DNA of 64,000 nucleotides, from the NCBI GenBank assembly GCA_037129925.1, contig JBAXTZ010000001.1:25155-89154 (forward strand), read 5' to 3'. Both the position numbers and the translations under genes were made by a program. The notes beneath the pieces are model-generated. The model made no database searches. It had not been told where the DNA came from and saw only the letters and a program-made list of their open reading frames with translations. Positions 4,649-21,972 of this stretch are shown here, one piece after another. Origin of the DNA: Bacillota bacterium. Lineage in GTDB: Bacteria; Bacillota; Negativicutes; JBAXTZ01. Position 1 is the stretch's first letter, and the number at the start of each line of letters is the position of its first letter.

Positions 4649-4752
4649 AATTAATTCTTTGCTGTCATAGCTTTTGCGACTATTTCAACTTGCCTGGACC
4701 AGACTAAATACAACTTTTTTCCACTTTAGCTTCTGCTGTCTAAGCTTCCATA

Positions 4753-5995: not shown

Positions 5996-6247
5996 TCATG
6001 CTCTTGCTTTTTGGCGCGAGTTCCGGCCAGTCGGATTTGATTGAACCCATGTTAGTTTTGATTCGGCCAGCGAGCCAATCACCGCAGCCTCCGTAACAAC
6101 AACGAATTTCCACGGCTGCAAATTGTTGCCGGACGGCGCCCAACGCGCGGCTTCAAGAATTTGTTCAATCACATTGCGCTCAACTTTATCGCTCTTGTAT
6201 GAGCGAACGCTGCGGCGATCCATTATTGCTGATAGCACTTCATTCAT
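5996..6247 (-). pseudogene. nitroreductase family, N-terminal fragment only (truncated)
   Basis: MNEVLSAIMDRRSVRSYKSDKVERNVIEQILEAARWAPSGNNLQPWKFVVVTE is a classic nitroreductase N-terminus. After about 50 aa the sequence loses family similarity, and an overlapping out-of-frame ORF (5904-6143) is also not nitroreductase-like. The fragment abuts the ATPase-cassette relic at 6325. Confidence 0.5.
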
Positions 6248-6324
6248 AACACTTTTTCCTATCCTGTATCTTTAATTAATTTCAATTCAGCATCTTTTAA
6301 ACATGCGAAATCAAACGTCTGTAA

Positions 6325-6700
6325 ACATGCTCATTTTTTCAAATTGCTCAGCGATGCGTAATTTGCGCAAATTTCGGAAGTGCCAACAACAGTCACACCA
6401 GCTTAGCTTAAATAATTTTTCAACAAATTTGGCAAACAACCAATCAATCCCAGCGGAATATTCAACACGCCGCCATTTAGGACAAGATTTCTTTGCGATG
6501 TCCGTAGCGCTACTATCGGTGAATACTTATCCCGATATACCTGTAGTCTTTTAGAACGAACTAATTCTGCCGCTTTCACTTCCAGCGGCAGAATTAGTTC
6601 CTTGTATTGAAAGACAAAATCAACCTCAGCTTTATTGCCAGATTACGATTTGTGCAACGAATCACGTTTTTGATATGAATTATGTGTTTGCAAATCACGT
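6325..6700 (-). repeat. relic copy of the DUF4143-ATPase cassette
   Basis: Bases 6325-6412 match 21727-21812. Bases 6405-6640 match 9255-9480, the C-terminal coding end of the intact ATPase gene. Bases 6645-6700 match the leader repeats at 10605-10660. The central ~1.1 kb of the gene is missing. Confidence 0.7.
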
Positions 6701-6805
6701 TTATGGCACGTAATAGTGGCGTATCATTATCAACTAACAATTTTCCATGTCAGATAGCGTATGCCATGTTTTTGAGTTATAATGGAAGTGTAAAGAGGTG
6801 CGATA

Positions 6806-6994
6806 ATGAAAGACAAATATAGATTCACAGACGACAATGAACCGAATGAAATACAGCTCACGGCTCTAATGAAAGAAGTCGGAGCGGGCTTTGTTGCCAG
6901 TTCCGCCAATGCACGGGCGATAATCGATGCTCAAATCAGATCAGAAGTTGAGGCCGTGCGCAAAAGGTTAAGTGTCGATGTTAAGCAAAACTAA
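6806..6994 (+). CDS. small hypothetical protein, candidate antitoxin partner of the downstream kinase
   Basis: 62 aa ORF whose 3' end overlaps the start of the next gene by 23 nt, suggesting translational coupling. Confidence 0.35.
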   Translation: MKDKYRFTDDNEPNEIQLTALMKEVGAGFVASSANARAIIDAQIRSEVEAVRKRLSVDVKQN

Positions 6995-7586
6995 ACCCAA
7001 ATTAGTAATAATTGCGGGTCCAAACGGATCCGGAAAAACGTCAGTGACGCGCAAAATATTGGAACACGAATGGATTGAAGGTTGTACCCAAGTTAACCCT
7101 GATGATATTGCGCGTGATGTTTTTGGCGATTGGAACTCAGACGAAGCGGTGCTTAAGGCAGCGAAGTATTCAACTCAAATCCGCGAACGCTGTCTGGCAT
7201 CACAATCAAGTCTGTTTTTCGAAACAGTTTTGTCCACGTATGAAAAACTTGATTTCATACGAAGAGCCCAAACATTAGGATATTTTATCCGTCTTTTCTT
7301 TGTCGGTACGGACAGTCCTGAGATTAATGCATCAAGAGTAGCCCGACGCGTTATTGAAGGAGGTCATACTGTTCCCATTCAAAAAATCATAAGCCGATAC
7401 AGTAAGTCGATCGCCAACTGTAGTGCGGCTGTATCGATGGTTGACAGACTGTATATTTATGACAACTCAATAGAAAACTCTGATCCGACGTTACTTTTCC
7501 GAGCCAGTTCCGGCACTTTGACCAAAAGATATGGCTCGATTAACACTTGGGCACAAACCATATTTGAAAGTCTTTCTTCAACTTAA
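6972..7586 (+). CDS. zeta-toxin-like / AAA_33 P-loop kinase
   Basis: GPNGSGKTSV Walker A about 20 aa from the N-terminus, a downstream PDDIARDVF segment, and conserved Arg residues. Size is about 200 aa. Resembles the zeta/PezT kinase superfamily. Confidence 0.5.
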   Translation: MSMLSKTKPKLVIIAGPNGSGKTSVTRKILEHEWIEGCTQVNPDDIARDVFGDWNSDEAVLKAAKYSTQIRERCLASQSSLFFETVLSTYEKLDFIRRAQTLGYFIRLFFVGTDSPEINASRVARRVIEGGHTVPIQKIISRYSKSIANCSAAVSMVDRLYIYDNSIENSDPTLLFRASSGTLTKRYGSINTWAQTIFESLSST

Positions 7587-7852
7587 GCTTTCAGGCGCTG
7601 CACATGCGGCGCTTTTTTTCGCGCTTACCCCGACCACCAAAGGAACTCATCAAGGAAGGCTCTTATTCATTTTACGCTACTCCGAAAAAAACCAATAACT
7701 CTGCTGGTCAGCACCTTTCATTACTTCATGTCCCTCGCTACGCCGTCTTTCAACTCGTAGATTCTCGTCGCTCCGGACAGAAACGCCAGCTGCTGCTACG
7801 AGGCGCGACTTCTTCGCATCCGACAGGAAAACCGCGCGCTGCTCGGTCAATT

Positions 7853-8629
7853 TCACTTTTTACACGAACATTTTATTTTCAGGTGGTTTATGTATAGCGG
7901 GCATAATTCCGGTTTGTGTTTATTGCAAAAAGCTCTTTTAAAATATATCAGCACCAAATGCGCCCACCAGGTTAATGGCCGGCCGGGTGGCACAGTAAGT
8001 AAATCGCTGTACCCGTTTTTATTAATCAGCGGCCTCAAATCCAGCGCTTTCACAATTTCCTCAAGGTCTCTTCGCGCCGCTTCGTGACCTATACTTCCCC
8101 GCTTTATACAAAATCCGATACAAGGAAGCAGCAAATCCTTCATGCCGCTGTCAACAGGCATTATTCCGCAATAATAGCCTTTCATATACAGAACACAGCA
8201 CTGAGCGACTTTATACGATGCTCCCTTAACTTTTCTACTTATTAGCTCTATCAGTTCATCGCTTGCACAATTCTGTATCTCAACCGGGTATGTATCAATA
8301 AAATCAATCATTGAACGGATATAGGAAATTCTGGCGGTTGCCAGACCCAGCACTGATATAATTTTTAGCAGATCGTCATCAGCCATTTTTCTAATTTCGT
8401 CATATTTGTACGAACTGAAGCTATCTACAACGCTGATGTATTTTTGAATCATATTGTAGGAAACTCGCGTAGATAATCCGGCAACGAGTAACCTGATTTT
8501 GTAGTCATCAATGGTGTTAGGCCACCACAAATTATTGTCATGATTTTTCAGCACGTGTTCACGTACAACTTTTTCCGCGCTCATGATGTCGAGTGCATTG
8601 TACAAATCGATATCGATAATATTGCTCAC
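7853..8629 (-). CDS. HhH-GPD superfamily DNA glycosylase-like protein (putative)
   Basis: Helix-hairpin-helix plus Gly/Pro-rich loop pattern ...VKGASYKVAQCCVLYMKGYYCGIMPVDSGMKDLL, ending in a conserved Asp. Cys-rich C-terminus. Confidence 0.4.
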   Translation of the reverse strand: MSNIIDIDLYNALDIMSAEKVVREHVLKNHDNNLWWPNTIDDYKIRLLVAGLSTRVSYNMIQKYISVVDSFSSYKYDEIRKMADDDLLKIISVLGLATARISYIRSMIDFIDTYPVEIQNCASDELIELISRKVKGASYKVAQCCVLYMKGYYCGIMPVDSGMKDLLLPCIGFCIKRGSIGHEAARRDLEEIVKALDLRPLINKNGYSDLLTVPPGRPLTWWAHLVLIYFKRAFCNKHKPELCPLYINHLKIKCSCKK

Positions 8630-8731
8630 TTGTTATTCCCTTTACGTACTCCCGCGAACAGCCCGCAACCCTTAATAATACTCGTTGAAATTATCAAACA
8701 TAATGTCATTTATATTGCTCGCTCACTTGAA

Positions 8732-9194
8732 TTACTTCAGTGTCGGCTTCCGGTGAAAATACTCTTCTTTGGTTATCGCCAACCGGATTTCCCACTCAGC
8801 CTTAACGCTGTCAGACAAGACTCGTTCTACCTCGGCGAAACCGGCTTTTTGAAACGCTCTTCCGCTGCGGGGATTATAATCAAAGTACCCGCCAAAAATC
8901 ATATCACAGTCCTTGCAGGTGAAACCGTACTGCACCAGTAACGCGATCGCCGCGCTACCGATTCCCTTGCTCCAGCAGTCTTTCTCCCCGATTACCAGAT
9001 CAATCCGGAAAATGTTCTTGTCCGGATAACGGTCAACAATTTCCTTAATATTCATCTGTTGCAGCCAGCATTCACCGACCGCTTGTCCAGCATATTCAAT
9101 AATGAAGTTCCAAAAAAAATCTCTTCACAGCGAATAAATTCCCGTCCAGGCGTAGCGACAGCCAACTGTTTCGGCGATTGCAGTAATTTGACAT
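8732..9194 (-). pseudogene. GNAT family N-acetyltransferase, frameshifted at an A8 homopolymer
   Basis: ATG at 9194 gives MSNYCNRRNSWLSLRLDGNLFAVKRFF, then the frame is lost at the A8 run (9112-9119). With one fewer A the reading continues WNFIIEYAGQAVGECWLQQMNIKEIV...WSKGIGSAAIALLVQYGF, an intact ~150 aa GNAT. Confidence 0.6.
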
Positions 9195-9241
9195 CGGTTT
9201 AACAAATTACCGGTAGTTAACGCAATCAGTTTTGTTTTATC

Positions 9242-10591
9242 TCAATTCAGATATTTTTTCAACAAATTCGGCAAACAGCCAATCAATCCCAGCGGAATGT
9301 TCAAAACGCCGCCATTTAGGACAAGATTTCTTTGCGATGTCCGTAGCGCTACTATCGGTGAATACTTATCCCGATATACCTGCAAACTTTTGGAACGGAC
9401 ATTTTCTGCCGCTTTCACTTCCAAAGGCAAAATCAGTTCCTGATATTGAAAGATAAAATCAACCTCAGCCGTATTACCAGATGTCCAGTAGTACGGAACG
9501 ATATCCTGCGCGATTAACTGTTGTAGCACGAAATTTTCGGTCAGCGGACCGGTAAATAGCGAAAACATCGGCGAACCTTCTAACAACATTCTGGCAGTAA
9601 CTCCGGTTTTTCTGCGTAACAAACCAACATCCGGAAGATGCAGTTTAAAAAATCTACTGTTAGCATAGGCGTTCAAAGGGAATTGCGGAAGGTCGATCCG
9701 CTCGACTTTGTGCGCCAAGCCAGCACTGACAATCCATTCCAGAGCCGTTTCATATTCACGGGCTCTGGCGCCTTCTTTAACCATGCCGAATACAAATTTG
9801 CCGTTTTCTTTCGCCAATTGTTCGGGAATGGAATTCCAAACTCGCTGAATTCGCGGCACGATTTCGGCAGGCGCATGTTTGGAAAAATCACGCTCATACG
9901 CAAGCAAAATTGCCGCCAACACTTTTTCGGTCTCTTCAACATCCTTACTCACCAGCCAACAGCCAACCGCCTCCGGCATTCCGCCGCACAATAGATAATT
10001 TTGTCGCAGGTCAGTAATTTTTTCAAAAATCGCCAAGGGAATTTCTTCGGCGGCGATGATTTGGTCAAGATATTCACCCAACATGCTTTCACCGGCTGAC
10101 TCAATATATTCTCTGAAACTTAGTGGATGCATCGTGAGAAAGTCCACCTTGCCAACCGGAAACGAACCGGGTTGTGACAGCGTCACGCCCAGCAACGAAC
10201 CGGCACAGACAATATGATATTCCGGCGCTTTCTCACAAAAATATTTTAGCGAATTTAGCGCATCGTTACATTCCTGGATTTCATCAAAAATCACCAGCGT
10301 GTTTTCCGGCACAATTTTCTTGCCATGCAACACGCTCAACGCATGCAGTAATCGCTCCGGATTCTTATCGCGCGCGAAGAGCGCCTGTAAACTCTTGTTC
10401 TCGTCAAAATTAAAGTAGGCGCAATCCGCGTACTCGCTCTCGCCGAATTCCTTTAAAGAATATGTTTTTCCGACCTGCCTGATACCCTGCAGTATTAAAG
10501 GTTTTCTGCGCGGCGACTGTTTCCAGTTTTTCAGTTGGCGATTTATTTTTCTAATTAACACAAGCTTCACCTCATCAACATCCGTCGCCAT
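9242..10591 (-). CDS. AAA family ATPase with DUF4143-type C-terminal domain (intact cassette copy)
   Basis: 467 aa ORF with Walker A GIRQVGKTYS and Walker B VIFDEIQE. The likely start is MATDVD at 10591, since a GTG/Met further upstream lacks an RBS. The 3' end and 5' leader are repeated at 6325-6700 and 21727-21972. Confidence 0.75.
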   Translation of the reverse strand: MATDVDEVKLVLIRKINRQLKNWKQSPRRKPLILQGIRQVGKTYSLKEFGESEYADCAYFNFDENKSLQALFARDKNPERLLHALSVLHGKKIVPENTLVIFDEIQECNDALNSLKYFCEKAPEYHIVCAGSLLGVTLSQPGSFPVGKVDFLTMHPLSFREYIESAGESMLGEYLDQIIAAEEIPLAIFEKITDLRQNYLLCGGMPEAVGCWLVSKDVEETEKVLAAILLAYERDFSKHAPAEIVPRIQRVWNSIPEQLAKENGKFVFGMVKEGARAREYETALEWIVSAGLAHKVERIDLPQFPLNAYANSRFFKLHLPDVGLLRRKTGVTARMLLEGSPMFSLFTGPLTENFVLQQLIAQDIVPYYWTSGNTAEVDFIFQYQELILPLEVKAAENVRSKSLQVYRDKYSPIVALRTSQRNLVLNGGVLNIPLGLIGCLPNLLKKYLN

Positions 10592-10705
10592 AATTTTACC
10601 ATACTTTTTGCAACGATTCACATTTTTGATATGAATTATGTGCAACGCTCACACATTTTTGATACGTAAAAGGTGTATTTAATCATTATTGAATGTTTTT
10701 CATCG
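10592..10705 (-). promoter_or_regulatory. conserved 5' leader of the ATPase cassette with a tandem 32-nt direct repeat
   Basis: 10609-10640 (tgcaacgattcacatttttgatatgaattatg) and 10641-10672 (tgcaacgctcacacatttttgatacgtaaaag) are tandem direct repeats. On the coding strand they carry cataat and ttgcaa hexamers upstream of the ATG. The same leader is present at 6645-6700 and 21870-21972. Confidence 0.45.
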
Positions 10706-10737
10706 CGCTAAGCAAACAATACAGCTTGCTGATTTTG

Positions 10738-11586
10738 TCAAAAACGTTCTGCAATCAATCTCTCCATCGCAAATATTTCCCGCAATGCTCTCGAAACTCC
10801 GGCGTCATCGTTGCTGGCAGTAACCAGCGCGCATACAGATTTCACACCGTCGCTGGCGTTCCCCATCGCAACCGGCAAGCCGACTGCTTGCAGCATCGAC
10901 AAATCATTCTCGCTATCACCGATGGCAACTAACTCGCTCCGGTCAATACCTAGCGAAAATGCGTAGTCCAGGAGCGCGACACCTTTGGAAATACCTCCTG
11001 CAACAATGTCCAGACTGAGCTTCGACGCACGAAACACTTCAACACCGTCAATAAGCCGGAGTTGCTGTTGTAGCGGTTCGAGCAGCGTTTGGTCACTCAC
11101 CGGATACATGAGCTTAATAATTTTCTCGCCACTCGCTAGCAATTCATCAATGCCTGCAATCACTTTAAACTCCATATGCCGTGATAACTGTTTGCTGAAG
11201 TGCGCGAACGGATTGCGCTGTTCGTCAAACTCATGTGGATTAAACGAATACACTTTATCCAGCCCGTAATAGCGCGGATAAAGACCGGCAGTTTGAAAGT
11301 AATTGTACAACTCAGTTAACGGTTGGAGCGGAATACTTTTGCAATAGTAGGTTTCGCCACTCACGACATCGCGCATCGTTGCGCCGTTGCAGCCCAAAAT
11401 CGGCGCGCTAATCCCCAAAGTGTTAACATACTCACGCGCCATAATGTCCGGTCGCCCGGTGACAACGACAAACCGCACACCGCGTTGGCGTAGTTCCCGA
11501 ATTGTTTGCACATTTTCAGCAGGAATTTCGTTTCGACTGTTCAACAACGTCCCGTCAATATCAATGGCTACAAGTTTGTATTGCAT
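10738..11586 (-). CDS. Cof-type HAD-IIB family hydrolase
   Basis: N-terminal DIDGTLL motif, GDSENDLSM near the C-terminus, length 282 aa. Confidence 0.85.
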   Translation of the reverse strand: MQYKLVAIDIDGTLLNSRNEIPAENVQTIRELRQRGVRFVVVTGRPDIMAREYVNTLGISAPILGCNGATMRDVVSGETYYCKSIPLQPLTELYNYFQTAGLYPRYYGLDKVYSFNPHEFDEQRNPFAHFSKQLSRHMEFKVIAGIDELLASGEKIIKLMYPVSDQTLLEPLQQQLRLIDGVEVFRASKLSLDIVAGGISKGVALLDYAFSLGIDRSELVAIGDSENDLSMLQAVGLPVAMGNASDGVKSVCALVTASNDDAGVSRALREIFAMERLIAERF

Positions 11587-11856
11587 ATCAGGCTAATCTC
11601 CAATTTCCACATAACATTATTATCCATATTTAGCGTACTTCTATATGTAATCACAGCTTTGTACCACTCGCTAACAAGAACTCACCTGAATCAATCATTC
11701 CAGGCTGGCAATAAGCCTGCTCTTCAAGACGGAGTATCGTCCGCCACGCGTTTTCACTTTCATTCAGCGTTTCCGCAGCTTTGTGAAAGCCGCAGGTAAA
11801 GCAAGGACTTCCACCCATAGTCAGGTTGCCAAATCCGGCTTTTTCGAGTAATGATT

Positions 11857-12573
11857 TCATTTCCGCAGAGTCAAAAATATGTCGCGGCGGATGCGCTTAA
11901 ATACACCCCATTTATTGCAAACACTGAGCAAAATAGTGCCGCCGACTTTCGTTACCCGCGCCAATTCGCTGATCGCTTTTTCATAATTGTTAACGACGTA
12001 ATTTAGTGGCGCGCCATAGCAAACCACCGTGTCGAACGAATTATCTTCAAAAACTGAGAGGTCGAGTAAATCAACGCCTATTCTGCAATTATTCAGCAGC
12101 AGATTACCCACATGAAAATCACCGTGTTGAAAAGTCTGTTTCCTGTCTTCCAGTCCGCTTAAATTGTGATTAATAAACTCCAGAAACTTTGTATCGTTAT
12201 TACACTTTATCGGACACGCTTCATATTTCAAGCGTTTAATTCTAATCTTCTCCGTGTACTTTTTCGCCCAGCCAACTCCACCTTCCGGCGCGTTGACAGA
12301 GTGTATCTTTCGCAGCATTTGACCGCTTAACAGTCCATATTTATATTGCTCGCTTTCAGAACAATTAGTCAAAGCGGCTTCGGCATCGTCACCTTCTACC
12401 CAAGAGAGCAATTGATACACTTCTGCTCCATCAGAGCAAATTCCAAAATCAACCGGCTCGGAAGCAGTAATACCAAGCCTGGAAACTGACTTAAGATACT
12501 CATTTTCAAATTGCCCGCAGAACTGCCGCGGATTCAGTCTTGTTTTCATAAATATGCCGGATAATATTATCAA
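11857..12573 (-). pseudogene. mosaic remnant: APH/choline-kinase-family kinase core fused to a class I SAM methyltransferase C-terminal fragment
   Basis: Hinge-like YQLLSWVEGDD and Brenner motif HGDFHVGNLLL are present, but there is no N-lobe. Methyltransferase motifs follow directly: FEDNSFDTVV (motif II) and RVTKVGGTILL (motif III), with no GxGxG motif I. The 5' end overlaps the ABC ATPase gene. Confidence 0.4.
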
Positions 12574-13513
12574 TCTCGGTTTCCTGTAACGCGAAGTCGT
12601 TGATCTTGTACTGTGCCGACAGTTTGGTTATCAGGTCGATGGCGGATATTTTATCTCGGTTGAACAGTATAAGTCGACGTAATCCCTCGGTTTTCATCGT
12701 AGTATGCAAATCACAATCTTGAATTGTCGCCGGTTCGTCGAAATCCACCACCAGCATCCGGTCTTTGCCGAACCGGTCTTTGATTTCGTCGATGTTGCCG
12801 TCATAAATTATTTTACCCAGATCGATAATTACAATCCGTTTGCAAAGTTTTTCGATATCACTCATATCATGTGTTGTAAGAATCACTGTCACGCCGGTTT
12901 CACGGTTGATCTTGGCGATAAACTCACGGATGCGCTCTTTCGCGACAACGTCCAACCCGATGGTCGGCTCGTCGAGGAACACTACCTTGGGATTATGCAG
13001 CAGGCTGGCGGCGATTTCACAGCGCATCCGCTGGCCGAGACTCAATTGCCGTACCGGCATGTGCAGAAATTCGTCGATACCGAGAACTTCCGTGAACAAT
13101 TCGATATTTTTTTGGTATGCCGGACGCGGAATGCGATAGATCGTGCGCAACAGATCGAACGACTCGTCAACCGGGAGATTCCACCATAACTGGGTGCGCT
13201 GTCCAAATACCACGCCAATATTTTTGGTATAGGCTTTCCGCTGTTTGTAAGGGACTATACCGCCGACTTCCACCGTTCCGGCAGTCGGCACCAGTATTCC
13301 CGTAAGCATCTTGATCGTTGTGGACTTTCCCGCGCCGTTTGGCCCGATGAATCCGACAATTTCACCGGCGGCAATTTGCATATCGATACTATCCACCGCT
13401 TTTTTCAGCAGCCGCTCCGGCTTGAACATACTCTTGATCACGCCGCCGATTCCTGACTGCCGCTTATTGATCACAAAATGTTTGGACAGATTTTCAATTC
13501 TTATCAAATTCAT
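12506..13513 (-). CDS. ABC transporter ATP-binding protein (ABC-2 exporter type)
   Basis: Walker A GPNGAGKST, signature LSLGQRMR, Walker B VVFLDEPT, H-loop TTHDM. Confidence 0.85.
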   Translation of the reverse strand: MNLIRIENLSKHFVINKRQSGIGGVIKSMFKPERLLKKAVDSIDMQIAAGEIVGFIGPNGAGKSTTIKMLTGILVPTAGTVEVGGIVPYKQRKAYTKNIGVVFGQRTQLWWNLPVDESFDLLRTIYRIPRPAYQKNIELFTEVLGIDEFLHMPVRQLSLGQRMRCEIAASLLHNPKVVFLDEPTIGLDVVAKERIREFIAKINRETGVTVILTTHDMSDIEKLCKRIVIIDLGKIIYDGNIDEIKDRFGKDRMLVVDFDEPATIQDCDLHTTMKTEGLRRLILFNRDKISAIDLITKLSAQYKINDFALQETEIDNIIRHIYENKTESAAVLRAI

Positions 13514-13515
13514 TA

Positions 13516-14316
13516 TCAGCTCCCGGTACTCGAATAGTGGCGCAGCCCGATTTTCCAGAACCGGCTGGCGAGTGTTATCAACACCACGCTATATAACAAT
13601 GATACTTTCCACACCCAATGTGGCAACGCCGCATATTCCGGATTATCCAGAAATATTCCCGCCGGAACGTAGCTTACAAATGCCATCGGCAAAATTGCAA
13701 ACAGGATGAATTTGATAATGCCGTTAAACAATGTCACCGGATAAAAGGCAAATTCCCGAAACGAGTTGTAAAGGTTATTCAGTCCGCCGGTATCGGTTAT
13801 ATAAAACGCGCAGGCACCGATTGCCAGCCGGATTGCACCCTGAATCAGAATTGCGGAAAATATCGTCAAGACAAAGAAAACAATCTTCTCCGCCGTCCAG
13901 TCAATATGAAACTCCTTGTGAAAAACCAAAAATATCGCGATCGCTGCAAAAAAATGGCCAAAGCCGCCCATTTCAAACCGGACACCGATAATACTGGCGA
14001 CCGGATTTATTGGCCGTAGCAGCATTACATCCAGCTCACCGCGTTTGACCAGATTGCCTACTTCTGACAAATTGATGAAGATCATGCCGCCGATTCCGTA
14101 TGTCCCCAGGCACAGCATGTAGATAAAAACAATTTGACCCAGTGTCCAGGCGCCGATGCTGCCAAATCGTTGCATGATTATCCAGATACCAAAAAAGCTG
14201 GAAAGATATGTCAGGCCCAAACCGAAAATATAGAATACCAGGCTGAACCGGTTGATCAGCGATGAACGGAAACTGGCACCTGCCAACCGGTAATAACAAT
14301 ACAAATCATGCAGCAT
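13516..14316 (-). CDS. ABC-2 family transporter permease
   Basis: 266 aa polytopic membrane protein immediately downstream of the ATPase, with adjacent stop and start. Confidence 0.7.
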   Translation of the reverse strand: MLHDLYCYYRLAGASFRSSLINRFSLVFYIFGLGLTYLSSFFGIWIIMQRFGSIGAWTLGQIVFIYMLCLGTYGIGGMIFINLSEVGNLVKRGELDVMLLRPINPVASIIGVRFEMGGFGHFFAAIAIFLVFHKEFHIDWTAEKIVFFVLTIFSAILIQGAIRLAIGACAFYITDTGGLNNLYNSFREFAFYPVTLFNGIIKFILFAILPMAFVSYVPAGIFLDNPEYAALPHWVWKVSLLYSVVLITLASRFWKIGLRHYSSTGS

Positions 14317-14317
14317 C

Positions 14318-15118
14318 TCAGCCTCCCTGTGCCACTACTTTTTTTACCCCGGCTGTCCACATAAAGTAAGCGCCTGCAAACAAGATGACCAGCCACAACA
14401 ATGTAACACCATAAACGCTCAACAGCGATATGTCCGCGCGTTCGCCAAGAAATCCGGCTATCGGCGTAAAAATTATATCTTTGAACGGCAGAACATTCAC
14501 GATATTTAGCAGCCATCGCGGATAAAACCACAGCGGCACAAACGACCCACAGAACACTACCATAATCGCTTCTTTTATATAGTGACAGTACATCGTACCC
14601 AGATACCAGAAGCTGATCATGTCGATAATAAAATTAACCAGAAACATCAGAATAAACCCGAGCAACATTCCGATGCAGAGGTTTATTATTGCCAGCGGCG
14701 CCGGGTTCCAGCTGATCCCGTATATCAGCGATAGAGCTATCAAAATCGGCGCCATGTTGGTAATAAATACCGAGATAGCATTACCGACCGCCTGAGCAAA
14801 CAACACCGACGGCAGCGATACCGGGTACAACAGATCACGGGCAATCGTCCCTTCATTCAGCCGCGAAGCTATCTCATAACCGGATATCGAGAACACGACA
14901 CTACCGATTGCCGCGGAAAGTATCGAAAACTTTATAGTCTTGAGCGCCAGCTCCGGCGAAAGACTATTGGCGTTCAGAGTGACGACCGCATACCAAATCG
15001 CAACCGTCGCGTAAGAATAAAGAAAATTCGTGAACAACCGGATCAAAAAGCTGACCCGAAAATTCATTGTGTCCTGTAGCTTAATCTGCGCAGACTTGAT
15101 ATATGGCGCTAAAAACAT
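14318..15118 (-). CDS. ABC-2 family transporter permease
   Basis: Polytopic membrane protein. The likely start is MFLAPY at 15118, preceded by GGGAGA. The track ORF extends further upstream without an RBS. Confidence 0.65.
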   Translation of the reverse strand: MFLAPYIKSAQIKLQDTMNFRVSFLIRLFTNFLYSYATVAIWYAVVTLNANSLSPELALKTIKFSILSAAIGSVVFSISGYEIASRLNEGTIARDLLYPVSLPSVLFAQAVGNAISVFITNMAPILIALSLIYGISWNPAPLAIINLCIGMLLGFILMFLVNFIIDMISFWYLGTMYCHYIKEAIMVVFCGSFVPLWFYPRWLLNIVNVLPFKDIIFTPIAGFLGERADISLLSVYGVTLLWLVILFAGAYFMWTAGVKKVVAQGG

Positions 15119-15258
15119 GGTGAGTCTCCCATTTACTTCGTTATCATTAATGTTGCCCGGCCGATTTTTTTTACACCCAGCACAAAACGCTTTCGCTAAT
15201 CGATTTGCGTCTGGATTTAGAAATTTTTCTGTTTTTAAAATACACCAGACACAAAACC

Positions 15259-16119
15259 CTACCCGCGCCAAATTTCCGAACAATCTACACACAGATATTT
15301 CCCGAGTTGAATCTTCGGCTTGTTCTTGCCGTGAAAGTCGCTGCCTGCGGTCATCAACAAATTATTTTGCCGCGCTTTCCCGGCAAAATATTCCTGTTGT
15401 TCCGGCGTATGATAATTATTGAAAATCTCAACGCCTTCGATTCCGGCGGCGATGATTTTGTCAATAAATTCCGGGTTGTCTTTCAGGTTCGCACCGGGAT
15501 GTGCGATTACCGGAATACCGCCGGTAGCCTTGACCAGTTTGACCGCATCGGTCAGCTTCATAAATTCTACCGGTACATATGCCGGTTTGCCTTGAGAAAA
15601 ATAATCCCAGTAGAAATTTATGTAGGGCATATCGCTACGTTCGCCACCGGAAAGATACGGACGCAGTATTTCGCAATCCGCAGCCTCGGATTTGTGCAAT
15701 ACTACTTCGGCAATATGTTCAGCGCAAGGAATCTGCCCGTTGGCGGCTGCCAAAACTTCGCCAATTCCGACATTCACGCCAAGCGCACGCATATTAGCAA
15801 TCATCGGTTCCAGCGTCGCCGCGCCCTTGGCGAATAGTTTGCGTTCCAACTCCGCAAATTCCGGTGCATTCCAGTCGATATTATAACCAAGCAGATGCAA
15901 ATTGACCCCTTCATGCGCACAGTCAATCTCAATTCCCGGAATCACGCGGATTCCCGCAGTACTGCCTAACTTAATTGCCCCGGCAACGCCTTTGACACTG
16001 TTATGATCAGTAATCGCCAGCGTTTTTATCCCAAGCGCGCGCGCCTGCGTCATTATCTCAGCAACCGAAAATTCGGCATCCGAGCTGTTATTGGAGTGAA
16101 TATGCAAATCAACCAGCAT
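15259..16119 (-). CDS. PHP domain phosphoesterase
   Basis: MLVDLHIHSNNSSD...ITDHN: the histidine-rich PHP (polymerase and histidinol phosphatase) motifs. Confidence 0.75.
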   Translation of the reverse strand: MLVDLHIHSNNSSDAEFSVAEIMTQARALGIKTLAITDHNSVKGVAGAIKLGSTAGIRVIPGIEIDCAHEGVNLHLLGYNIDWNAPEFAELERKLFAKGAATLEPMIANMRALGVNVGIGEVLAAANGQIPCAEHIAEVVLHKSEAADCEILRPYLSGGERSDMPYINFYWDYFSQGKPAYVPVEFMKLTDAVKLVKATGGIPVIAHPGANLKDNPEFIDKIIAAGIEGVEIFNNYHTPEQQEYFAGKARQNNLLMTAGSDFHGKNKPKIQLGKYLCVDCSEIWRG

Positions 16120-16244
16120 AAGTTTTTCCGCCTTTCTCAAACTTTACTCCGCCAGATTATGGTAATCATCTTCATGATTGACAAATAAAAAATCAATAAC
16201 GGTTCTGTATGAATATACACTAACTAACGATTGCAGTACTGGTT

Positions 16245-16739
16245 TCACAATATCTGCTCTCCCTCCCATCCGTATTCGCTGTAGAAAACATTATGCTGAA
16301 TACCCTCAACCGCTTGTCTGATATAAGGAATAACAGTCTCAGGCAGATTTTCCAAATCAAACCAGGATAAATCATCGCATTTATGCGGCTCTTTGTTGAT
16401 TATCTCTCCGCACCAACTGTCAGCCACAAAAAATACATCAACCCGCTCGAACTGCTCGCCGTGATTAGCATTTCTGTGCATTACATGCGCGACTTTCAGA
16501 TTTTTCGGTTCGAGAAGAATTCCCGCTTCTTCTTCAGCTTCACGGATAATGCATTCAGTAAAAGTTTCACTCGCGTCAACGTGCCCAGCGATCATTGAAT
16601 AGTTGCCGTCTTCATAGCCAGTATTATAGCGCCGGAGCAGCAGAATCTTGTTATCCTTTATCAAGACCAAATAAGCCGCCGGAATATTACAATGCCTGAT
16701 TTTCATAGTATCCTCTTCAATCTTTCTATAAAAAGTCAT
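16245..16739 (-). CDS. NUDIX hydrolase
   Basis: Nudix box GHVDASETFTECIIREAEEEAGI. Confidence 0.8.
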   Translation of the reverse strand: MTFYRKIEEDTMKIRHCNIPAAYLVLIKDNKILLLRRYNTGYEDGNYSMIAGHVDASETFTECIIREAEEEAGILLEPKNLKVAHVMHRNANHGEQFERVDVFFVADSWCGEIINKEPHKCDDLSWFDLENLPETVIPYIRQAVEGIQHNVFYSEYGWEGEQIL

Positions 16740-16740
16740 C

Positions 16741-17550
16741 TCACTTGTTCGATATGCCTTTTAGCCATTCGACAGCAAAATCCACCGCCACCCGCTGCCT
16801 GAACAACCGGCAGTTCGCTGAACCGACTGTGCCATGTTTCACCGGACACCGCTGTTCAAAATCACGACCAACGTCTGGAAACGAATCCGTGTCGTAATCA
16901 AAATCTTCAAATTCTTGCCAAATCGTTTCACCATTCACAAGCAGCGGCGCGCCGTTCGTCTTGTGGACAATCCCCGGCGTTCGCGCCTCCGCCAGATGGA
17001 ACGAGGTGTTGGTGTGATATTCGGTGCCCAGCATCAGAACACAACCATCTAATTCATACAGTCTGGCTAGTGGCGAACCCTCACCCAAAGAATATTCCAG
17101 TTTATGATTTCCCGTCAAATATCGTGCATAATTGCCTAACGCCGCAAAGGAAACCGCGGGATGACTGCTACGAAAGACCCGCGGTAATTTTCGAAACGTC
17201 TCGGGAATTTTCCCGACATTGCGCGTCGGCGTGATGTCCGGCTGAAAAGCAGGCATCGCAGCTTTGATTATCGGAATCCAGTCCGGCGGCACCGGCGGAT
17301 TACACCAATCTGCCGGATCAGAATAATCACCGGAAAAGGCTGGAACCATTACCGTTCCGATATGCGTTATCACGTCCAGCAGCGCCTGAATCACGGTAAC
17401 CGCCCCGCCGCACACCCAACCGAGCGAGCCGAGTGACGAATGTACCAGCACATTCATACCCGGCGCCAATCCCAGTTTGCGCAAATCGCAAGCCAGGCTT
17501 TCCCGCGTGCGCGGTTGATCAGCTTTTTGAATACTGGTTAGTTCAGACAT
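16741..17550 (-). CDS. aminoglycoside N(3)-acetyltransferase family protein (AAC(3)/YokD-like)
   Basis: VLVHSSLGSLGWVCGGA...PAFSGDYSDP...GTEYHTNTSFHLAE pattern of the AAC(3) family. Stop-start adjacent to the NUDIX gene. Confidence 0.75.
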   Translation of the reverse strand: MSELTSIQKADQPRTRESLACDLRKLGLAPGMNVLVHSSLGSLGWVCGGAVTVIQALLDVITHIGTVMVPAFSGDYSDPADWCNPPVPPDWIPIIKAAMPAFQPDITPTRNVGKIPETFRKLPRVFRSSHPAVSFAALGNYARYLTGNHKLEYSLGEGSPLARLYELDGCVLMLGTEYHTNTSFHLAEARTPGIVHKTNGAPLLVNGETIWQEFEDFDYDTDSFPDVGRDFEQRCPVKHGTVGSANCRLFRQRVAVDFAVEWLKGISNK

Positions 17551-17582
17551 AAATATTTTCCTTTATATATGGCGCGTTAACT

Positions 17583-18242
17583 TCATTTCTTCTTTCGCGA
17601 TGCACGAAATAGCAGCCTCGCCTGTTTTTGTTTGTTTTTATAGTATCGCTCACGCAGATTTGAAATTATGATCAATATCATCCCCGTACTAAAATACCAT
17701 GGACCAAAAATGAATAGTGAAGTAAGATAAAATTTCGCTGGGTTTTCGAATTCAATCAGCACTCTGCCAGTGATAATGCTTCCCGGTTCACCGAAATCGG
17801 AATTCATAACGCAGTCTGCAAAAAAAACTGCGACTACAATTACACTAAGCGTCAGCCAAAATTTTCCGTTCTTTCTGTTGCTTCTTTTTCGAAACTCTTT
17901 ATATACCAGGTTCAGTTGCTGCATTTCCAAAAAAAAGGTCGCTGTACACGATAGAATAGCAACTAATTGCAATATTGCTACAACAAGAGGTGTAGTGTAA
18001 TATCGCGAGTAAAGCTCCACGCCTTTTATCATCGGTACAAATATCGACATTGCCGCAATAAATATTTTCCCGAATTCACTTGCGTAAATACCGGATAAGT
18101 CACAATTAACCAATATAAATGCGGCAAATAAGTGAATCACAAGAAATATTGCAACTAAATTTCCGTCGCCACCGGTTATTTTCCGAAGGATAGCAATACG
18201 TTTGTTTTTGATGTCTACCTCATTCATTGTCTCTCCATTCAA
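17583..18242 (-). CDS. hypothetical membrane protein
   Basis: 219 aa with several hydrophobic helices and basic termini. No motif recognised. Confidence 0.5.
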   Translation of the reverse strand: MNGETMNEVDIKNKRIAILRKITGGDGNLVAIFLVIHLFAAFILVNCDLSGIYASEFGKIFIAAMSIFVPMIKGVELYSRYYTTPLVVAILQLVAILSCTATFFLEMQQLNLVYKEFRKRSNRKNGKFWLTLSVIVVAVFFADCVMNSDFGEPGSIITGRVLIEFENPAKFYLTSLFIFGPWYFSTGMILIIISNLRERYYKNKQKQARLLFRASRKKK

Positions 18243-18640
18243 GGCACCAAACCAATTTCGGCAATCGCCGGAGCGCCGGACGCGCGGCTATTATTACCGT
18301 AGTCATATCAATCTTGCTCCCATCACAATCTAGCTATTCGACAAGCTCTCCAACATAGTCAACCGCTACCGGCTAAAGTGGCAAACAGTTCTTAGCTGTT
18401 CATCGTGTAGCAGAAGCCGGTTGATACTGATAATTTCATCTTTCCTCAGCCATTTTTAGATTACAACAATTTTTCGGACTCATTGCCTGCAACTACCCGT
18501 AATTCACAACACCAGTACGCTGGTGAATCGGCAGCGTGCAACATTGCTGCACACTAATTTTCATATTGCAATCCTCGCTTACTGAACATGATTTTCAAAT
18601 GCTCCAGCGCTGGCACATTTGGCGACAGCCGAATCCAGTT

Positions 18641-19330
18641 TCACTTACTTCCGATAAACCGCTTAATATCTTTGGCGTTGGCCGCTGGATTCAAGACAAG
18701 TATCTGAGCTGTAATTTTATCGACAGCATCACGTTTGCTGATCGCGCATGATTGCTCAAGCACTTCAGCGCCAAAAAACTTTTCCACTGTGCAGAAAGTC
18801 GTAACCGGCCAGCCGTATTCCTTGCCGTCTTGCGATAATTTGAATTTCTGGCCGCTGATGGTTACAAGCATTTTCATTTGTTGTTGTGTCAGCGCTTTTT
18901 CAAACTGCGTATTCTGATTTTTGCCGATGCCTGCCAGCTCTTTTAAATCGTGCAGTGACATATGCGCATTGTCGCGGACAAGATCATAAATTTTATATTC
19001 AAGTTCATTGATCAAACCGTCGCTCTGCATAACTTCGAAAGTTTTGTGTTCACGGCGCACTGCCAGAAAATATGGATACCATTCCCGGGTAATCCAGCCG
19101 CCTTTGTTGAGAAACAACTTGCTGTACGCCATATCATCGCACTCGGTGACGCCGCGAATCCGCCAGGACCAAGGATCTATTTCAATATCGCCGCTATGCT
19201 CTTCAAGATTGTCCGAGAAATAATTGCACAGAGAAAATATCCCCTCATTATTATGCGATCCCAGCGAAAATCCCGCCGCCCGCAACGCCTCACAAAACGC
19301 CGTGAACGAATCAATTGGTTGTAGTAGCAT
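18641..19330 (-). CDS. hypothetical protein, co-transcribed with oligoendopeptidase F
   Basis: 229 aa ORF starting 1 nt after the pepF-like stop. No confident family assignment. Confidence 0.5.
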   Translation of the reverse strand: MLLQPIDSFTAFCEALRAAGFSLGSHNNEGIFSLCNYFSDNLEEHSGDIEIDPWSWRIRGVTECDDMAYSKLFLNKGGWITREWYPYFLAVRREHKTFEVMQSDGLINELEYKIYDLVRDNAHMSLHDLKELAGIGKNQNTQFEKALTQQQMKMLVTISGQKFKLSQDGKEYGWPVTTFCTVEKFFGAEVLEQSCAISKRDAVDKITAQILVLNPAANAKDIKRFIGSK

Positions 19331-21016
19331 TTATACCTCCGCCTGTTCCAGCCATTGCGCAATATCGCCGGTTATTGATTGTACGCAGCCGTCCGCAAAC
19401 GGCGAACGCAGGTTGACGGTTTTGAGCAGTGCGGTGAACGGCTGGCTGCCGCCGCTTTTACACAATTGCAGATAAGCTGCCCAAGCGGCCTTGTAATCGC
19501 GTTCGGACCGTTGCCAGAATTGCAGCGCGCAAATCTGCGCCAGCGTGTAGTCGATATAGTAAAACGGAATTACATATATATGCATCTGCTGTTGCCAGTA
19601 GCCGCCCTGTTCCAGATAATCATTACCCTCGTAGTTCAGATGCGGCAGATATTTTTTCTCAACCGCCCGCCATGCTGATTTACGTTCGGACGGTGTTGCT
19701 TCGGGATGGGCATACACAAAATGCTGGTACTCATCGACCGCGACACCATAGGGAATGAACATCAGGTTTTCCGTCATGTGTTCAAATTTATATTTTCCCG
19801 CATCAGCATTGAAAAACCTCTCCATCCACGGCCAGGCGAAATACTCCATACTCATGGAGTGGATTTCGGCGGTTTCGGCAGTAGCGCCGACATATTCCGG
19901 TACCTCAAAATGAAAACTGCAATACACCTGAAAAGCGTGTCCGGCTTCATGTGTCAAAACATTGATGTCGCCGATCGTCCCGTTGAAATTTGAAAAAATA
20001 AACGGCGCACAGTATTTGTGAATGTAGCTGCAATAGCCGCCCGGCGCTTTCCCCGGCTTGCTGTCGAGATCAAGCAACTCATTGGTTTGCATAAAATCAA
20101 AAAACTCTGCTGTTTCCGGAGCTAACTCCGTATACATTTCCCGTCCGCGCGCAACAATCCAGTTCAGATCACCCTGCGGCTTGACGCCGCCGTCCGCAAA
20201 CAATAGTTTGTCATCATAATAGCGCAGTTCGTCAACTCCCAGCCGCTTACGCTGCTGTTCTTTCATTGCCGTCACCAGCGGTACGATATGCTCCGCAACC
20301 TGATCGCGGAACTTGGCAACCTGGGCACTATCGTAGTCGGTGCGCTGCATCCGCGCGTAGCCAAGCTCAACAAAATTATCATAACCAAGTTTTTTGGCAA
20401 TATTATGCCGCAGCTTGACAAGTTTGTCATAAATCTCGTCGAACTGCTGCTCGTGTTCACTGAAAAAGCGGTATTTCGCCTCGTGCGCGGCTTTGCGCAC
20501 GCTGAGGTCCGGCGATTTCAGATAGGGCACCATTTGCGGCAGTGTCAACGTTTTTCCATCAAATGTGATCTGCGCCGATGCTGTTAATTTTTGGTACTCG
20601 CTATTCAGCTTATTCTCGGCTTGCAGCTGTTCGACTACTTCCGGCGAAAAAACTTTCAGCTTGCATTCGGCAAGCGCGAATAACTGCGCACCAAATTGTT
20701 CTTCAAGTTCCGCGCGGAACTTTGAAAATAATAGTGCCCGGTAATATTTGTCAATCAAACCGGCAAACAGCGGCTCGGTTTCATCAAAAAAGTTTTGCTC
20801 CGCTTCATAATATGCATCACGGGTGTCGATAGTATGCCGGATAAAGCACAGCGCACTCATTGAGTCAAATTCTTTGCGGATGGCGTTTATTTCATCAATA
20901 GCCTGCTGTTGAATACTGACCGTTTCGGCTGCCGCAAACTGCGATAACAGTTGCAGGAACTCAGTTTCGATTTTGTCGAAATCCGGACGGATATAAACAT
21001 ACTCGGTAAATTTCAT
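19331..21016 (-). CDS. pepF: M3 family oligoendopeptidase (oligoendopeptidase F-like)
   Basis: 561 aa with the zinc motif HEAGHAF and a downstream conserved Glu. Length and overall pattern match M3B PepF. Confidence 0.85.
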   Translation of the reverse strand: MKFTEYVYIRPDFDKIETEFLQLLSQFAAAETVSIQQQAIDEINAIRKEFDSMSALCFIRHTIDTRDAYYEAEQNFFDETEPLFAGLIDKYYRALLFSKFRAELEEQFGAQLFALAECKLKVFSPEVVEQLQAENKLNSEYQKLTASAQITFDGKTLTLPQMVPYLKSPDLSVRKAAHEAKYRFFSEHEQQFDEIYDKLVKLRHNIAKKLGYDNFVELGYARMQRTDYDSAQVAKFRDQVAEHIVPLVTAMKEQQRKRLGVDELRYYDDKLLFADGGVKPQGDLNWIVARGREMYTELAPETAEFFDFMQTNELLDLDSKPGKAPGGYCSYIHKYCAPFIFSNFNGTIGDINVLTHEAGHAFQVYCSFHFEVPEYVGATAETAEIHSMSMEYFAWPWMERFFNADAGKYKFEHMTENLMFIPYGVAVDEYQHFVYAHPEATPSERKSAWRAVEKKYLPHLNYEGNDYLEQGGYWQQQMHIYVIPFYYIDYTLAQICALQFWQRSERDYKAAWAAYLQLCKSGGSQPFTALLKTVNLRSPFADGCVQSITGDIAQWLEQAEV

Positions 21017-21036
21017 TTATTCCTCCAACTTTTTTA

Positions 21037-21429
21037 TCAATTCTCGCCGTCCCACCTGAACGGCAGCAACTGGCGGATCGTGACAATTTTGGTCTCGCTG
21101 ACCATAACCTCTGTATCAATGTTGCGGTTGTCTATCTGATAGATAAACTCGCGGCAGCGGCCGCAGGGCGGAATAACGGTGTTGGTACCGCAGACCACGG
21201 CGACGATTTTCATTATCCGAGTCTCGCCATTGGTCACCATCTGGGCAATCGCCGAGTGTTCGGCACAAAATCCCATACTGCTGGATACATCAATGCACAC
21301 GCCGGAATAAACGTTACCCTTATCGGTAACCAGCGATGCCGCCACCCCGCCATATTCGCAGTATTTACTTGACCGCTGCGGGTTGAGATGGTTTAGTGCG
21401 ATTGATTTAAGCTCTTCGAATTTCATCAT
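21037..21429 (-). CDS. cdd: cytidine deaminase
   Basis: CAEHSAI and PCGRCREF zinc-binding motifs, 130 aa. Confidence 0.8.
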   Translation of the reverse strand: MMKFEELKSIALNHLNPQRSSKYCEYGGVAASLVTDKGNVYSGVCIDVSSSMGFCAEHSAIAQMVTNGETRIMKIVAVVCGTNTVIPPCGRCREFIYQIDNRNIDTEVMVSETKIVTIRQLLPFRWDGEN

Positions 21430-21726
21430 CTGCTCCTGACATGTCTTTATTACGATACCTTAATTAAGATTCGTTCCCGAAAGCAACTATTCCTGCATGT
21501 TTTATATTATTTATCCGACATTTATTTGACACGCGAAAAAGAACACCGCCAGAAACAACTCTGGCGGCGTTGGACAACTGTGATCAACTGGCAGCAATAG
21601 TACAACACTTCTTAAGCTTAGCGCTTTTGCTTAATACTCCTCGGAATTATTTGCCACAATCCCAGTTCAATTCCTAATAACAAAGTGTCTGAAAGAAATG
21701 GCAAGGTCGACATAACGTTACAATCC

Positions 21727-21972
21727 AGTTTTTCAAATTACTCAGCGATGCGTAATTTGCGCAAATTTCGGGAGTGCCAACAACAGTCACACCAGCTTAG
21801 CTTAAACAATTTTTCAACAAATTTGGCAAACAGCCTCAGCCGCATGACCTTATGCCCATTACCATACTTTTTGCAACGAATCACGTTTTTGATATTAATT
21901 ATGTACAACGTTCACACATTTTTGATACGTAAAAGGTGAAGTTGATCTTCGTTGAATGTTTTTCGCTAGCCG
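21727..21972 (-). repeat. deletion relic of the DUF4143-ATPase cassette (both ends retained, gene body lost)
   Basis: 21727-21840 match 6325-6430 (cassette distal end). 21857-21972 match 10590-10705 (leader with tandem direct repeats). The two ends are joined directly, with no ATPase coding sequence between them. Confidence 0.65.

Follow-up and report, generated by a model that had tools for sequence, protein, structure and literature searches.

A PDC-S01-type ATPase-nuclease gene, its dyad-bearing leader and two relics in a Negativicutes genome

The stretch of DNA studied here, referred to as the window, comprises 64,000 nucleotides of contig JBAXTZ010000001.1 from a Bacillota bacterium (assembly GCA_037129925.1; class Negativicutes). 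It contains one intact gene for an ATPase with AAA_14 and DUF4143 domains, preceded by a leader with two tandem repeats, and two relics (A and B) in which parts of such a gene and leader recur. The first-pass annotation had read the shared flanks as those of either a small non-autonomous mobile cassette or an ATPase module gained and lost by recombination. In the present study, we compared the three copies with one another, with relatives of the organism, and with homologous loci from other phyla, and then considered what the leader may do and how the copies may have arisen. The gene together with its leader is called the module below.

Copies of the module, the gene product and the probable insertion site

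Similarity between the copies was determined by blastn of the 64-kb window against itself and by a repeat search. Relatives with a comparable neighbourhood (L096 and L098) were found through the neighbouring HAD hydrolase gene, which is about 90% identical at the nucleotide level. The features, with corrected annotation, are as follows.

9242..10561, minus strand: intact gene (GTG start at 10561, TGA stop at 9242-9244) for a 439-aa protein with AAA_14 and DUF4143 domains, family PDC-S01
10562..10703, minus strand: leader (putative control region) of the intact copy, about 140 nt, with repeats R1 (10609-10640) and R2 (10641-10672)
6412..6643, minus strand: gene part of relic A, the final 232 nt of an apparently once-functional paralogue; 90.1% identical to 9251-9482
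6644..6753, minus strand: leader of relic A, with R1 and a diverged R2-like dyad; deletion junction at about 6644-6648
6332..6411, minus strand: 'distal end' of relic A, within a match of 95.5% to 21726-21835
21859..21964, minus strand: leader of relic B, both repeats present; 89.6% identical to 10596-10701
21806..21858, minus strand: gene remnant of relic B, a decayed S-G-N-T-A-E codon piece and the last 26-30 nt of the gene
21704..21805, minus strand: host flank of relic B, including its 'distal end'; matches L096 16870-16943 at 88%
8732..9249, minus strand: GNAT acetyltransferase pseudogene and ribosome-binding site, the putative insertion target; 9249-9170 aligns with L096 14846-14916
3335..4648, plus strand: distant PDC-S01 paralogue of 437 aa, without the shared flanks and without a dyad leader (context only)

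The 467-aa reading frame that begins at TTG 10645 is merely the longest open reading frame (ORF) at the intact copy; the true start is GTG 10561, which gives 439 aa. This product is 100% identical to a protein from an NCBI metagenome-assembled genome (MAG; P0001), and its N-terminus aligns with the N-termini of its homologues. With this start, the repeats fall in the leader of about 140 nt and not in coding sequence. The intact copy and the repeat-bearing leader of the first-pass annotation thus both exist, at 439 aa instead of 467 aa and about 140 nt instead of about 110 nt. Its two tandem 32-nt direct repeats were also recovered in a short-seed repeat search (period 32-33 nt, 79% identity over a 24-nt core), lying inside the false N-terminal extension of the 467-aa frame; Tandem Repeats Finder gave them no score, as they are too diverged.

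The intact gene and the two relics all lie on the minus strand, no more than 16 kb apart. Relic A keeps the three parts that had been ascribed to it: the 3' part of the gene (6412-6643 against 9251-9482, 90.1% over 232 nt, E 5e-88), the distal end (6332-6441 against 21726-21835, 95.5% over 110 nt, E 3e-46), and the leader (6649-6686 against 10605-10642, 92.1% over 38 nt). Relic B matches the intact copy in the leader (21859-21964 against 10596-10701, 89.6% over 106 nt, E 2e-35) and at the end of the gene (21810-21835 against 9255-9280, 96.2% over 26 nt). Homology between the copies ends abruptly at the edges of the module, and blastn gave no additional copy within the window. The paralogue at 3335-4648 has zero nucleotide similarity to the module copies within the window, in agreement with the earlier statement that it lacks their flanks.

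Pfam assigned AAA_14 (PF13173, 1.9e-28) and DUF4143 (PF13635, 3e-32) to the 439-aa protein, and both domains were found in the 3335 paralogue as well. The protein matched the PADLOC model PDLC04786 for PDC-S01 over residues 2-431 of 439 (E 1.9e-167), and the paralogue matched the PDC-S01 model PDLC04787 (E 4.9e-117). DUF4143/COG1373 is counted among the PD-(D/E)XK nuclease families (PMC3424549), and a PD-(D/E)xK motif is readable as EVDF...LEVK in the C-terminus of the window protein. PDC-S01, an ATPase fused to PD-(D/E)xK, is reported to be the fourth commonest prokaryotic defence candidate, with validation pending (PMC12988326); in rumen genomes it is reported as the single locus met most often (PMC12988326, PMC13356809). 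The order of domains in the 439-aa protein is an ATPase core, a helical lid, a winged helix, and then the nuclease domain; it has the nucleotide-binding, helical, and winged-helix domains that mark the STAND and Orc-Cdc6-like AAA+ fold, and its best fold matches were archaeal Walker ATPases and STAND/NLR proteins. A PDB sequence search returned no solved structure related by sequence, and NCBIfam held no model for the window ATPases. Among 5.8 billion sequences searched, the nearest other protein was only 56% identical. Homologues with identities near 50% come from Bacillota, Bacteroidota, Spirochaetota, Actinomycetota, Desulfobacterota, Elusimicrobiota, Fibrobacterota, and Synergistota, and a PDC-S01-type gene is present on 58 plasmids. 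Exact-protein look-ups with the ATPase (449-aa and 439-aa forms) and with the zeta toxin encoded beside relic A matched no record. From these matches we assign the gene to PDC-S01, a candidate anti-phage family, and nothing in the window copy departs from that family. The function, formerly given as unknown, can therefore be narrowed to that of a PADLOC defence candidate, itself unvalidated.

The frame of relic A is open for 79 codons and has its own stop (6403-6405) and no start codon. Over the 231 nt that it retains, 23 positions are changed relative to the intact copy, and 15 of these are third codon positions (dN/dS 0.14, dS 0.33); relic A therefore derives from a functional, long-diverged paralogue. 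The two ends of relic B had been described as joined directly, but 23 nt between them (21836-21858) are a remnant of the S-G-N-T-A-E codons, after which the leader follows. Relics A and B have the same junction between leader and gene, which in a gapped alignment reads ...GTAA / T(C)TGG..ATAA..GCTGAGG. It follows from this common junction that the relic had already lost about 1.1 kb in a single deletion when it was duplicated.

Three pieces make up the distal end of relic A: the final codons and stop of an A/B-type gene, 3' sequence of about 20 nt, and host DNA (6335-6381, 47 nt), the last being intergenic DNA copied from a relic-B-like locus. L096 16870-16943 is 88% identical to window 21775-21704, and L096 16870-16917 is 91.7% identical to window 6381-6335. 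In L096 this segment is immediately followed by a PHP gene, and 220 nt with a terminator-like hairpin separate it from the preceding gene, which encodes an ATPase of another family, PDC-S27. The match of the segment to relic B extends 22 nt past the A/B boundary at 21726. Part of the relic-B neighbourhood is therefore present in relic A, as expected of a segmental copy and not of the end of an element; judged from these alignments, the 3' distal end common to the relics is neighbouring host DNA. The host flank of relic B contains two palindromes, GAAATTTGCGCAAATT and AAATTACGCA-N5-TGCGTAATTT, the latter perfect in L096 and degenerate in the window. The distal ends in the window fold no better than shuffled sequence.

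Five assemblies are 99.4-100% identical to the window, and all five contain relic B with an identical leader; the presence/absence polymorphism between strains that had been proposed as a sign of a cassette was not seen there. Another relative, about 86% identical (L008), has an independently decayed relic beside an HD gene fragment. This relic (L008 1139-1253) keeps 30 nt of the nuclease-motif region, with 29/30 matches to the intact copy and about 24/30 to relic A, although its position beside the HD fragment is relic-B-like; gene conversion between copies, or a separate history, may lie behind this. A strong hairpin resembling an intrinsic terminator (13 pairs, then a T-run) lies at 21542-21571 on the minus strand, 155 nt past relic B, and would stop any transcript leaving the leader of relic B.

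The intact copy lies at a site that is empty in relatives. L096 and L098 have the HAD gene, a 38-nt spacer, and then the GNAT gene, with no module; in the window, 1.48 kb of module separates the two genes. In an alignment, window 9249-9170 falls on the ribosome-binding site and the start of GNAT in the relative (L096 14846-14916), and thus the last sense codon and stop of the ATPase gene (AAT TGA) are target sequence. The A/B-type ending TTA AGC TAA was evidently lost at this junction, which cut off the gene's own stop codon. The distal segment at the intact copy does differ from that of the relics, as had been noted, and corresponds to the ribosome-binding site and 5' end of the GNAT gene. 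This gene is a pseudogene in the window, where 8732-9241 (minus strand) is debris with an in-frame stop and CTG for ATG. The 5' end of the leader (GATGAAAAAC...) was considered as the original GNAT start codon and dropped, since the similarity is too short and relic B has the same bases.

The leader element and its possible function

In the intact leader, 24-nt cores of the form CACAT-N14-ATGTG lie at 10619-10642 and 10652-10675, and a possible extended -10 box (TGGTAAAAT) lies at 10601-10593; a simple sigma-70 scan found no minus-strand promoter in this leader. In relic A, R1 (6649-6686) matches the intact copy at 92% and relic B at 95%; the R2-like dyad of this relic (6665-6716) has diverged, and a promoter-like site, CTGACA-16-GATAAT, lies at 6753-6726.

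To place these repeats in the family, we inspected the upstream 160 nt at 80 loci of the approximately 50%-identical homologues, with ±2.5 kb sampled per locus. Nearly all 80 loci have a dyad-symmetric element upstream of the gene, with the core ATG(C/T)(A/G)-N8-(C/T)(G/A)CAT, A/T-rich arms, and copies phased at 32 nt. The version in Firmicutes is TATAAT...ATATGAAAAATGCA-N8-TGCATTTTTCATAT and that in Bacteroidota is TAnnTTTG...AATTATGTGA-N6-TCACATAATT; on a Fusobacterium plasmid, a pair of TGTGA-N6-TCACA dyads with a phasing of 32 nt stands directly upstream of TGTTATAAT. Leaders in Flavobacteriia carry three tandem 32-nt units, which lie 70-170 nt upstream of the gene in L054, L063, L066, and L082 (CACATnnTTCATAGGAATAACGTG and TAAAAAAT); the unit CACATAATTCATAT(C/T)AAAAA(T/C)GTG is near-identical to the window repeat despite the phylum distance.

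The strict dyad was enriched 15.6-fold in the region from -150 to 0 (6.1 versus 0.39 per kb) and was present in 57 of 79 loci. Its spacer peaked sharply at N8, with 70 cases against 2-22 for other spacings; its centre lay 30-39 nt ahead of the start codon in 36 cases, and dyads were repeated 32 nt apart in eight. Across 39 non-redundant, spacer-anchored elements, complementarity of the two arms within a locus at positions 9-16 was far above that of permuted controls (0/1000), and several pair types occurred per position.

A profile hidden Markov model (HMM) was then built from the homologues' elements only, with no window sequence. Its ten best matches in the 64-kb window all fell in the three leaders (6650-6716, 10617-10673, and 21879-21936), the best being the leader of relic A (E 8e-4); outside the ATPase leaders of the window there was no match with E < 3. 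The profile also matched the relic in L008. In the homologous loci, which are also the profile's training sequences, 101 of 103 matches lay upstream of the ATPase gene, and across about 430 kb of loci the only site outside ATPase leaders was a solo leader, described below. The 3335 paralogue, in the same genome, has no dyad element. From these results, we identify the two tandem repeats of the first-pass annotation as two phased copies of a family-wide dyad element, and the 5' leader as what appears to be the gene's own control region, conserved across phyla. Between the intact copy and relic A the leaders have diverged by about 10% whereas the genes have a dS of 0.33; thus the leader was under constraint. 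Rfam 15 gave no match with E up to 1 in window 1-24000, and on 20 homologous loci only a tRNA scored. We found no description of an upstream element in the literature on DUF4143, COG1373, AAA_14, and PDC-S01, and the main text of the 'guilt-by-embedding' preprint does not name PDC-S01. The phased dyad leader element is apparently undescribed.

The dyads are most probably operators, and may be ones through which the module regulates its own transcription, a reading to which we would give even odds. An element of protein-bound DNA is favoured by the fixed N8 spacer together with the 32-nt phasing (three helical turns), by its location upstream of good promoters in L085, L094, L073, and L064 and downstream of the -10/-7 box elsewhere, by profile scores that are about equal on the two strands (56 versus 45), and by the folding of the window leaders, which is no better than that of shuffled sequence (z +0.57 for the intact leader, and +0.57 to +1.15 for the three). 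As the element moves from phylum to phylum in company with the gene and is seen almost nowhere else, binding by the ATPase itself would be most parsimonious, and the putative binder would be its own winged-helix domain. Tight self-repression of a potentially toxic nuclease through the leader dyads would make sense.

Several points weigh against this interpretation. The link between the element and the ATPase is a predicted one, drawn from sequence, and the anti-phage role of PDC-S01 is that of a candidate. The copies in the window are poor palindromes, and their positions relative to a transcription start are candidate positions. As ±2.5 kb was sampled per homologous locus, the absence of the element elsewhere in those genomes carries less weight. 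The arms co-vary out to 16-22 bp, which is longer than the footprint of a simple helix-turn-helix dimer and also fits a hairpin or cruciform, and in a large number of loci from Bacteroidota and Firmicutes the element follows the -10/-7 box and precedes the start codon, where it would be transcribed as well.

These last two points would suit a leader that acts as RNA, in the form of a 5'-untranslated-region hairpin controlling stability or translation of the ATPase mRNA, with alternative pairing in some lineages to a third GTGAT beside the start codon. The hairpins at such loci are long and near-perfect; in L017, L042, L034, and L041 the arms measure 19-30 bp. Arm sequences are specific to the locus, and perfect pairing reaches 26-30 bp. 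G·T mismatches also outnumber A·C mismatches (22 versus 13), a weak sign, as the excess lacks significance and was counted over non-independent loci. We nevertheless consider an RNA function unlikely. The folding of the three window leaders, the spacer and phasing, the near-equal matches on both strands, and the placement upstream of a good promoter in L085, L094, L073, L064, and others all speak for DNA, and the Rfam search gave no family.

Bacteroidota, Fusobacterium, and Spirochaete versions of the dyad fit TGTGA-N6-TCACA exactly, a consensus that we take to be that of CRP and that is exact in these relatives but degenerate in the window leaders. The dyads could accordingly be sites of a global host regulator of the CRP/FNR type instead of sites of the ATPase. 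This seems rather improbable to us, since the element follows a gene transferred among Bacillota, Bacteroidota, Fusobacteriota, Spirochaetota, Desulfobacterota, and Actinomycetota, the core switches in type (TGTG, TGCA, or TGCG) while the geometry stays constant, and profile matches outside the ATPase leaders are lacking in the window at E < 3 and, over the roughly 430 kb of loci, limited to the one solo leader. In the same host, the distant paralogue (3335-4648) is also without the element.

Self-binding by the ATPase, which we prefer, can be extended. The dyad array might be the cognate site of the PDC-S01 ATPase-nuclease, which would occupy its own leader by way of the winged helix and so hold the nuclease silent until infection, and might serve at the same time as a set of breakpoints for excision and swapping of modules and for the formation of solo leaders; examples would be the relics in the window and, both described below, the L076 solo leader and the solo PDC-S27-type palindrome at 22817-22874. 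We regard this extension as quite doubtful. If true, the two most abundant uncharacterised ATPase-nuclease defence candidates would share a logic of self-recognition and module exchange.

Turnover of the module

An all-against-all blastn of the 80 loci gave many cross-species pairs of 75-95% identity that are homologous from about -60/-140 to the stop (+1296 to +1320) and have unrelated flanks; a few pairs are syntenic, and the 5' limit of homology coincides with the promoter boxes. From the changed neighbours, the module moves as promoter, leader, and gene. Homology limits at this level of identity fit a boundary set by selection and one set by the mechanism of transfer alike, and cannot tell them apart.

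We consider the history of the copies to be one of recombination-driven turnover of a self-contained defence-type module, and not of transposition; to this account, taken together with the reading of the leader as the module's own dyad-bearing control region, we give a probability of roughly 65%. Gain and loss of an ATPase module by recombination, the second of the two earlier proposals, fits the abrupt ends of homology, the empty HAD-GNAT site in L096 and L098, and the cross-species pairs. From the first proposal, which is only partly supported, it holds that gene and leader behave as a discrete unit; the supposed conserved flanks of a cassette correspond to the family's control region on the 5' side and to host intergenic DNA on the 3' side.

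As a non-autonomous cassette similar to a miniature inverted-repeat transposable element (MITE) or an integron cassette, the module would have its leader and distal end as termini recognised by a recombinase, and the relics would be internally deleted derivatives mobilised by a recombinase encoded elsewhere. We judge this to be very unlikely. The single internal deletion junction in relics A and B, both of which keep both ends, would agree with propagation of a deleted derivative; however, the distal end is host DNA found upstream of the PHP gene in the relative and matching beyond the A/B boundary, and the three 3' boundaries differ (9250/51, 6332, and beyond 21704), that of the intact copy having removed its own stop. 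The hexamer TTTTTC occurs at the outer edges of homology, on the left of relics A and B (6333-6338 and 21727-21732) and on the right of relic B and the intact copy (21959-21964 and 10696-10701), and is the sole candidate target-site duplication, but it is of low complexity and too simple for one; comparison of the filled and empty sites of the intact copy gave no clean duplication. The ends of the element read GAAAAACATTCAA... and ...AATTTGAAAAA and are not inverted, and the repeat search gave no inverted pairs in 1-30 kb. The dyad repeats of the leader could be recombination sites; a scan of 35 ORFs in 1-24 kb revealed neither an integrase nor a transposase. Gene and leader do occur in unrelated contexts across species and on the 58 plasmids, and a solo leader exists in a Bacteroidales MAG; on the other hand, scans with the leader pattern gave no matches in species-representative genomes or in viral contigs, and the four in JGI metagenomes were the same organism, one relative, and two chance matches (L006 and L007). 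Breaks of short-read contigs at the repeats could also be cited for a cassette. Relic B is present in all five near-identical strains, and the dS of 0.33 between intact and A-type genes, with its sign of purifying selection, is at odds with a recent burst of transposition. As the discovery of a mobile element, the finding does not hold up.

A simple tandem duplication in place of a single segment, with later decay, would account for three copies on the same strand within 16 kb, but is highly improbable: the copies are separated by unrelated genes and have nothing in common beyond the module, the dS of 0.33 again separates the intact and A-type genes, the intact copy occupies a spacer that is empty in relatives, and a relative already has a decayed relic beside its HD gene fragment.

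Under recombination-driven turnover, the region would represent three generations of one self-contained, single-gene module, made up of a 1.32-kb gene, whose product joins an AAA+/STAND-like ATPase to a PD-(D/E)xK nuclease domain, and of its own control region of about 140 nt. In this variable region rich in pseudogenes, ordinary duplication, deletion, and illegitimate recombination would have produced the copies. A functional A/B-type paralogue (dS 0.33 from the intact gene) would have lost about 1.1 kb between the leader and the codons for S-G-N; the dead copy would next have been duplicated at another location, taking with it 47 nt or more of adjoining host DNA, and relic B would have lost a further 200 nt or so. 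The intact copy would have been placed in the 38-nt HAD-GNAT spacer, at a junction that cut off its own stop codon. This order has weak points of its own: the common A/B junction comes from a short gapped alignment of about 30 nt, and the direction of change at HAD-GNAT, insertion or deletion, is drawn from the chimeric stop codon and not from an outgroup.

PDC-S01 is very abundant and uncharacterised, and the phased dyad leader offers a testable handle on its regulation, open to operator-protein coevolution analysis, footprinting, and reporter assays. The window in turn serves as a worked example of module turnover, with a filled and an empty site, a chimeric stop codon, a re-copied dead copy, and solo leaders.

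The solo leader in the Bacteroidales MAG (L076 3949-4122) is 87.6% identical to 2261-2436 of the same locus and lies 145 nt downstream of the gene; no ORF of at least 80 aa was found in the 2 kb after it. Short-read contigs of the same organism as the window (L001, L002, L003, L004, and L089) end at or inside the repeats, at 9353, 9932, about 10265, 10705, and 21777, and that of L004 stops exactly at the leader boundary; these ends are assembly breaks caused by the repeats.

Around relic B, the neighbourhood differs between relatives. L096 has a PDC-S27 ATPase gene at 15256-16647 (PADLOC E 2.6e-55), between the same markers that enclose the HD gene and relic B in the window; these are therefore alternative ATPase-nuclease modules in the same neighbourhood. 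At 22817-22874 of the window, about 90 nt upstream of the HD gene, lies the palindrome AAACTGACTcTAGA-N-TCTAAAGTCAGTTT. The same palindrome stands directly upstream of the PDC-S27 ATPase_2/DUF234 gene in L096 (15190-15243) and L098, and the window has no such gene; it resembles either a solo leader of another type or an operator put to new use. L096 also carries a block of about 7.3 kb twice in tandem (256-7500 and 7595-14827, on one metagenome scaffold) with genes for beta-lactamase, NUDIX, HD, ABC, ABC-2, Rce1-like, and HAD proteins, which may be a real duplication or an assembly artefact.

Near relic A, a frameshifted or truncated nitroreductase gene lies at 5904-6247 (minus strand). A zeta-toxin-like gene (Pfam 2.1e-11) lies at 6806-7586 (plus strand), divergent from relic A, with an overlapping 62-aa ORF ahead of it; the two are probably a toxin-antitoxin pair. 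At 11857-12573 (minus strand), an ORF fuses an APH fragment to a methyltransferase fragment.

Comparison with known systems

The region resembles defence-island hotspots, at which different defence genes replace one another within conserved flanks, in that a PDC-S27 ATPase-nuclease in L096 takes the place of the HD gene and relic B between the same markers, in that the HAD-GNAT spacer is filled in the window and empty in a relative, and in that a zeta-toxin gene stands beside relic A. It differs in that the neighbours in the window are mostly resistance-like genes, housekeeping genes, and pseudogenes, unlike the dense clusters of a classical defence island, and no integrase marks a hotspot. 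With MITEs and integron cassettes, the module shares an internally deleted derivative that was propagated with both ends and a palindromic element at one end. Terminal inverted repeats, a clear target-site duplication, a 3' attC, and an integrase were not found, however, and its 3' 'end' is host DNA. An integron cassette carries attC on the 3' side of a promoterless ORF, whereas the palindromic element of the module lies at the 5' or promoter end, with promoter-like boxes, and is conserved with the gene.

CRP-type operators share the identical core and spacing with the element in relatives. The arms of the module's element, however, co-vary far beyond a 22-bp site, the core is TGCA or TGCG in Firmicutes, and the element is tied to one horizontally transferred gene and not to a regulon. 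Autoregulated AAA+ DNA-binding proteins with sites adjacent to their own genes are known from DnaA, with DnaA boxes at dnaA, and from Orc1/Cdc6, with origin recognition box (ORB) repeats at archaeal origins. The analogy is one of possible working only and not of family membership: DNA binding by the window protein is a prediction, no sign of a replication function was seen, a nuclease domain is present in addition, and the protein is closest in fold to archaeal Walker ATPases and STAND/NLR proteins.

The closest system is PDC-S01 itself. As it has been described, neither the upstream dyad element nor the occurrence of relics and solo leaders appears in Rfam or in the literature searched. In all else the window gene is like the family, with a full-length HMM match, the same two Pfam domains, a C-terminal PD-(D/E)xK motif, wide transfer, and occurrence on plasmids.

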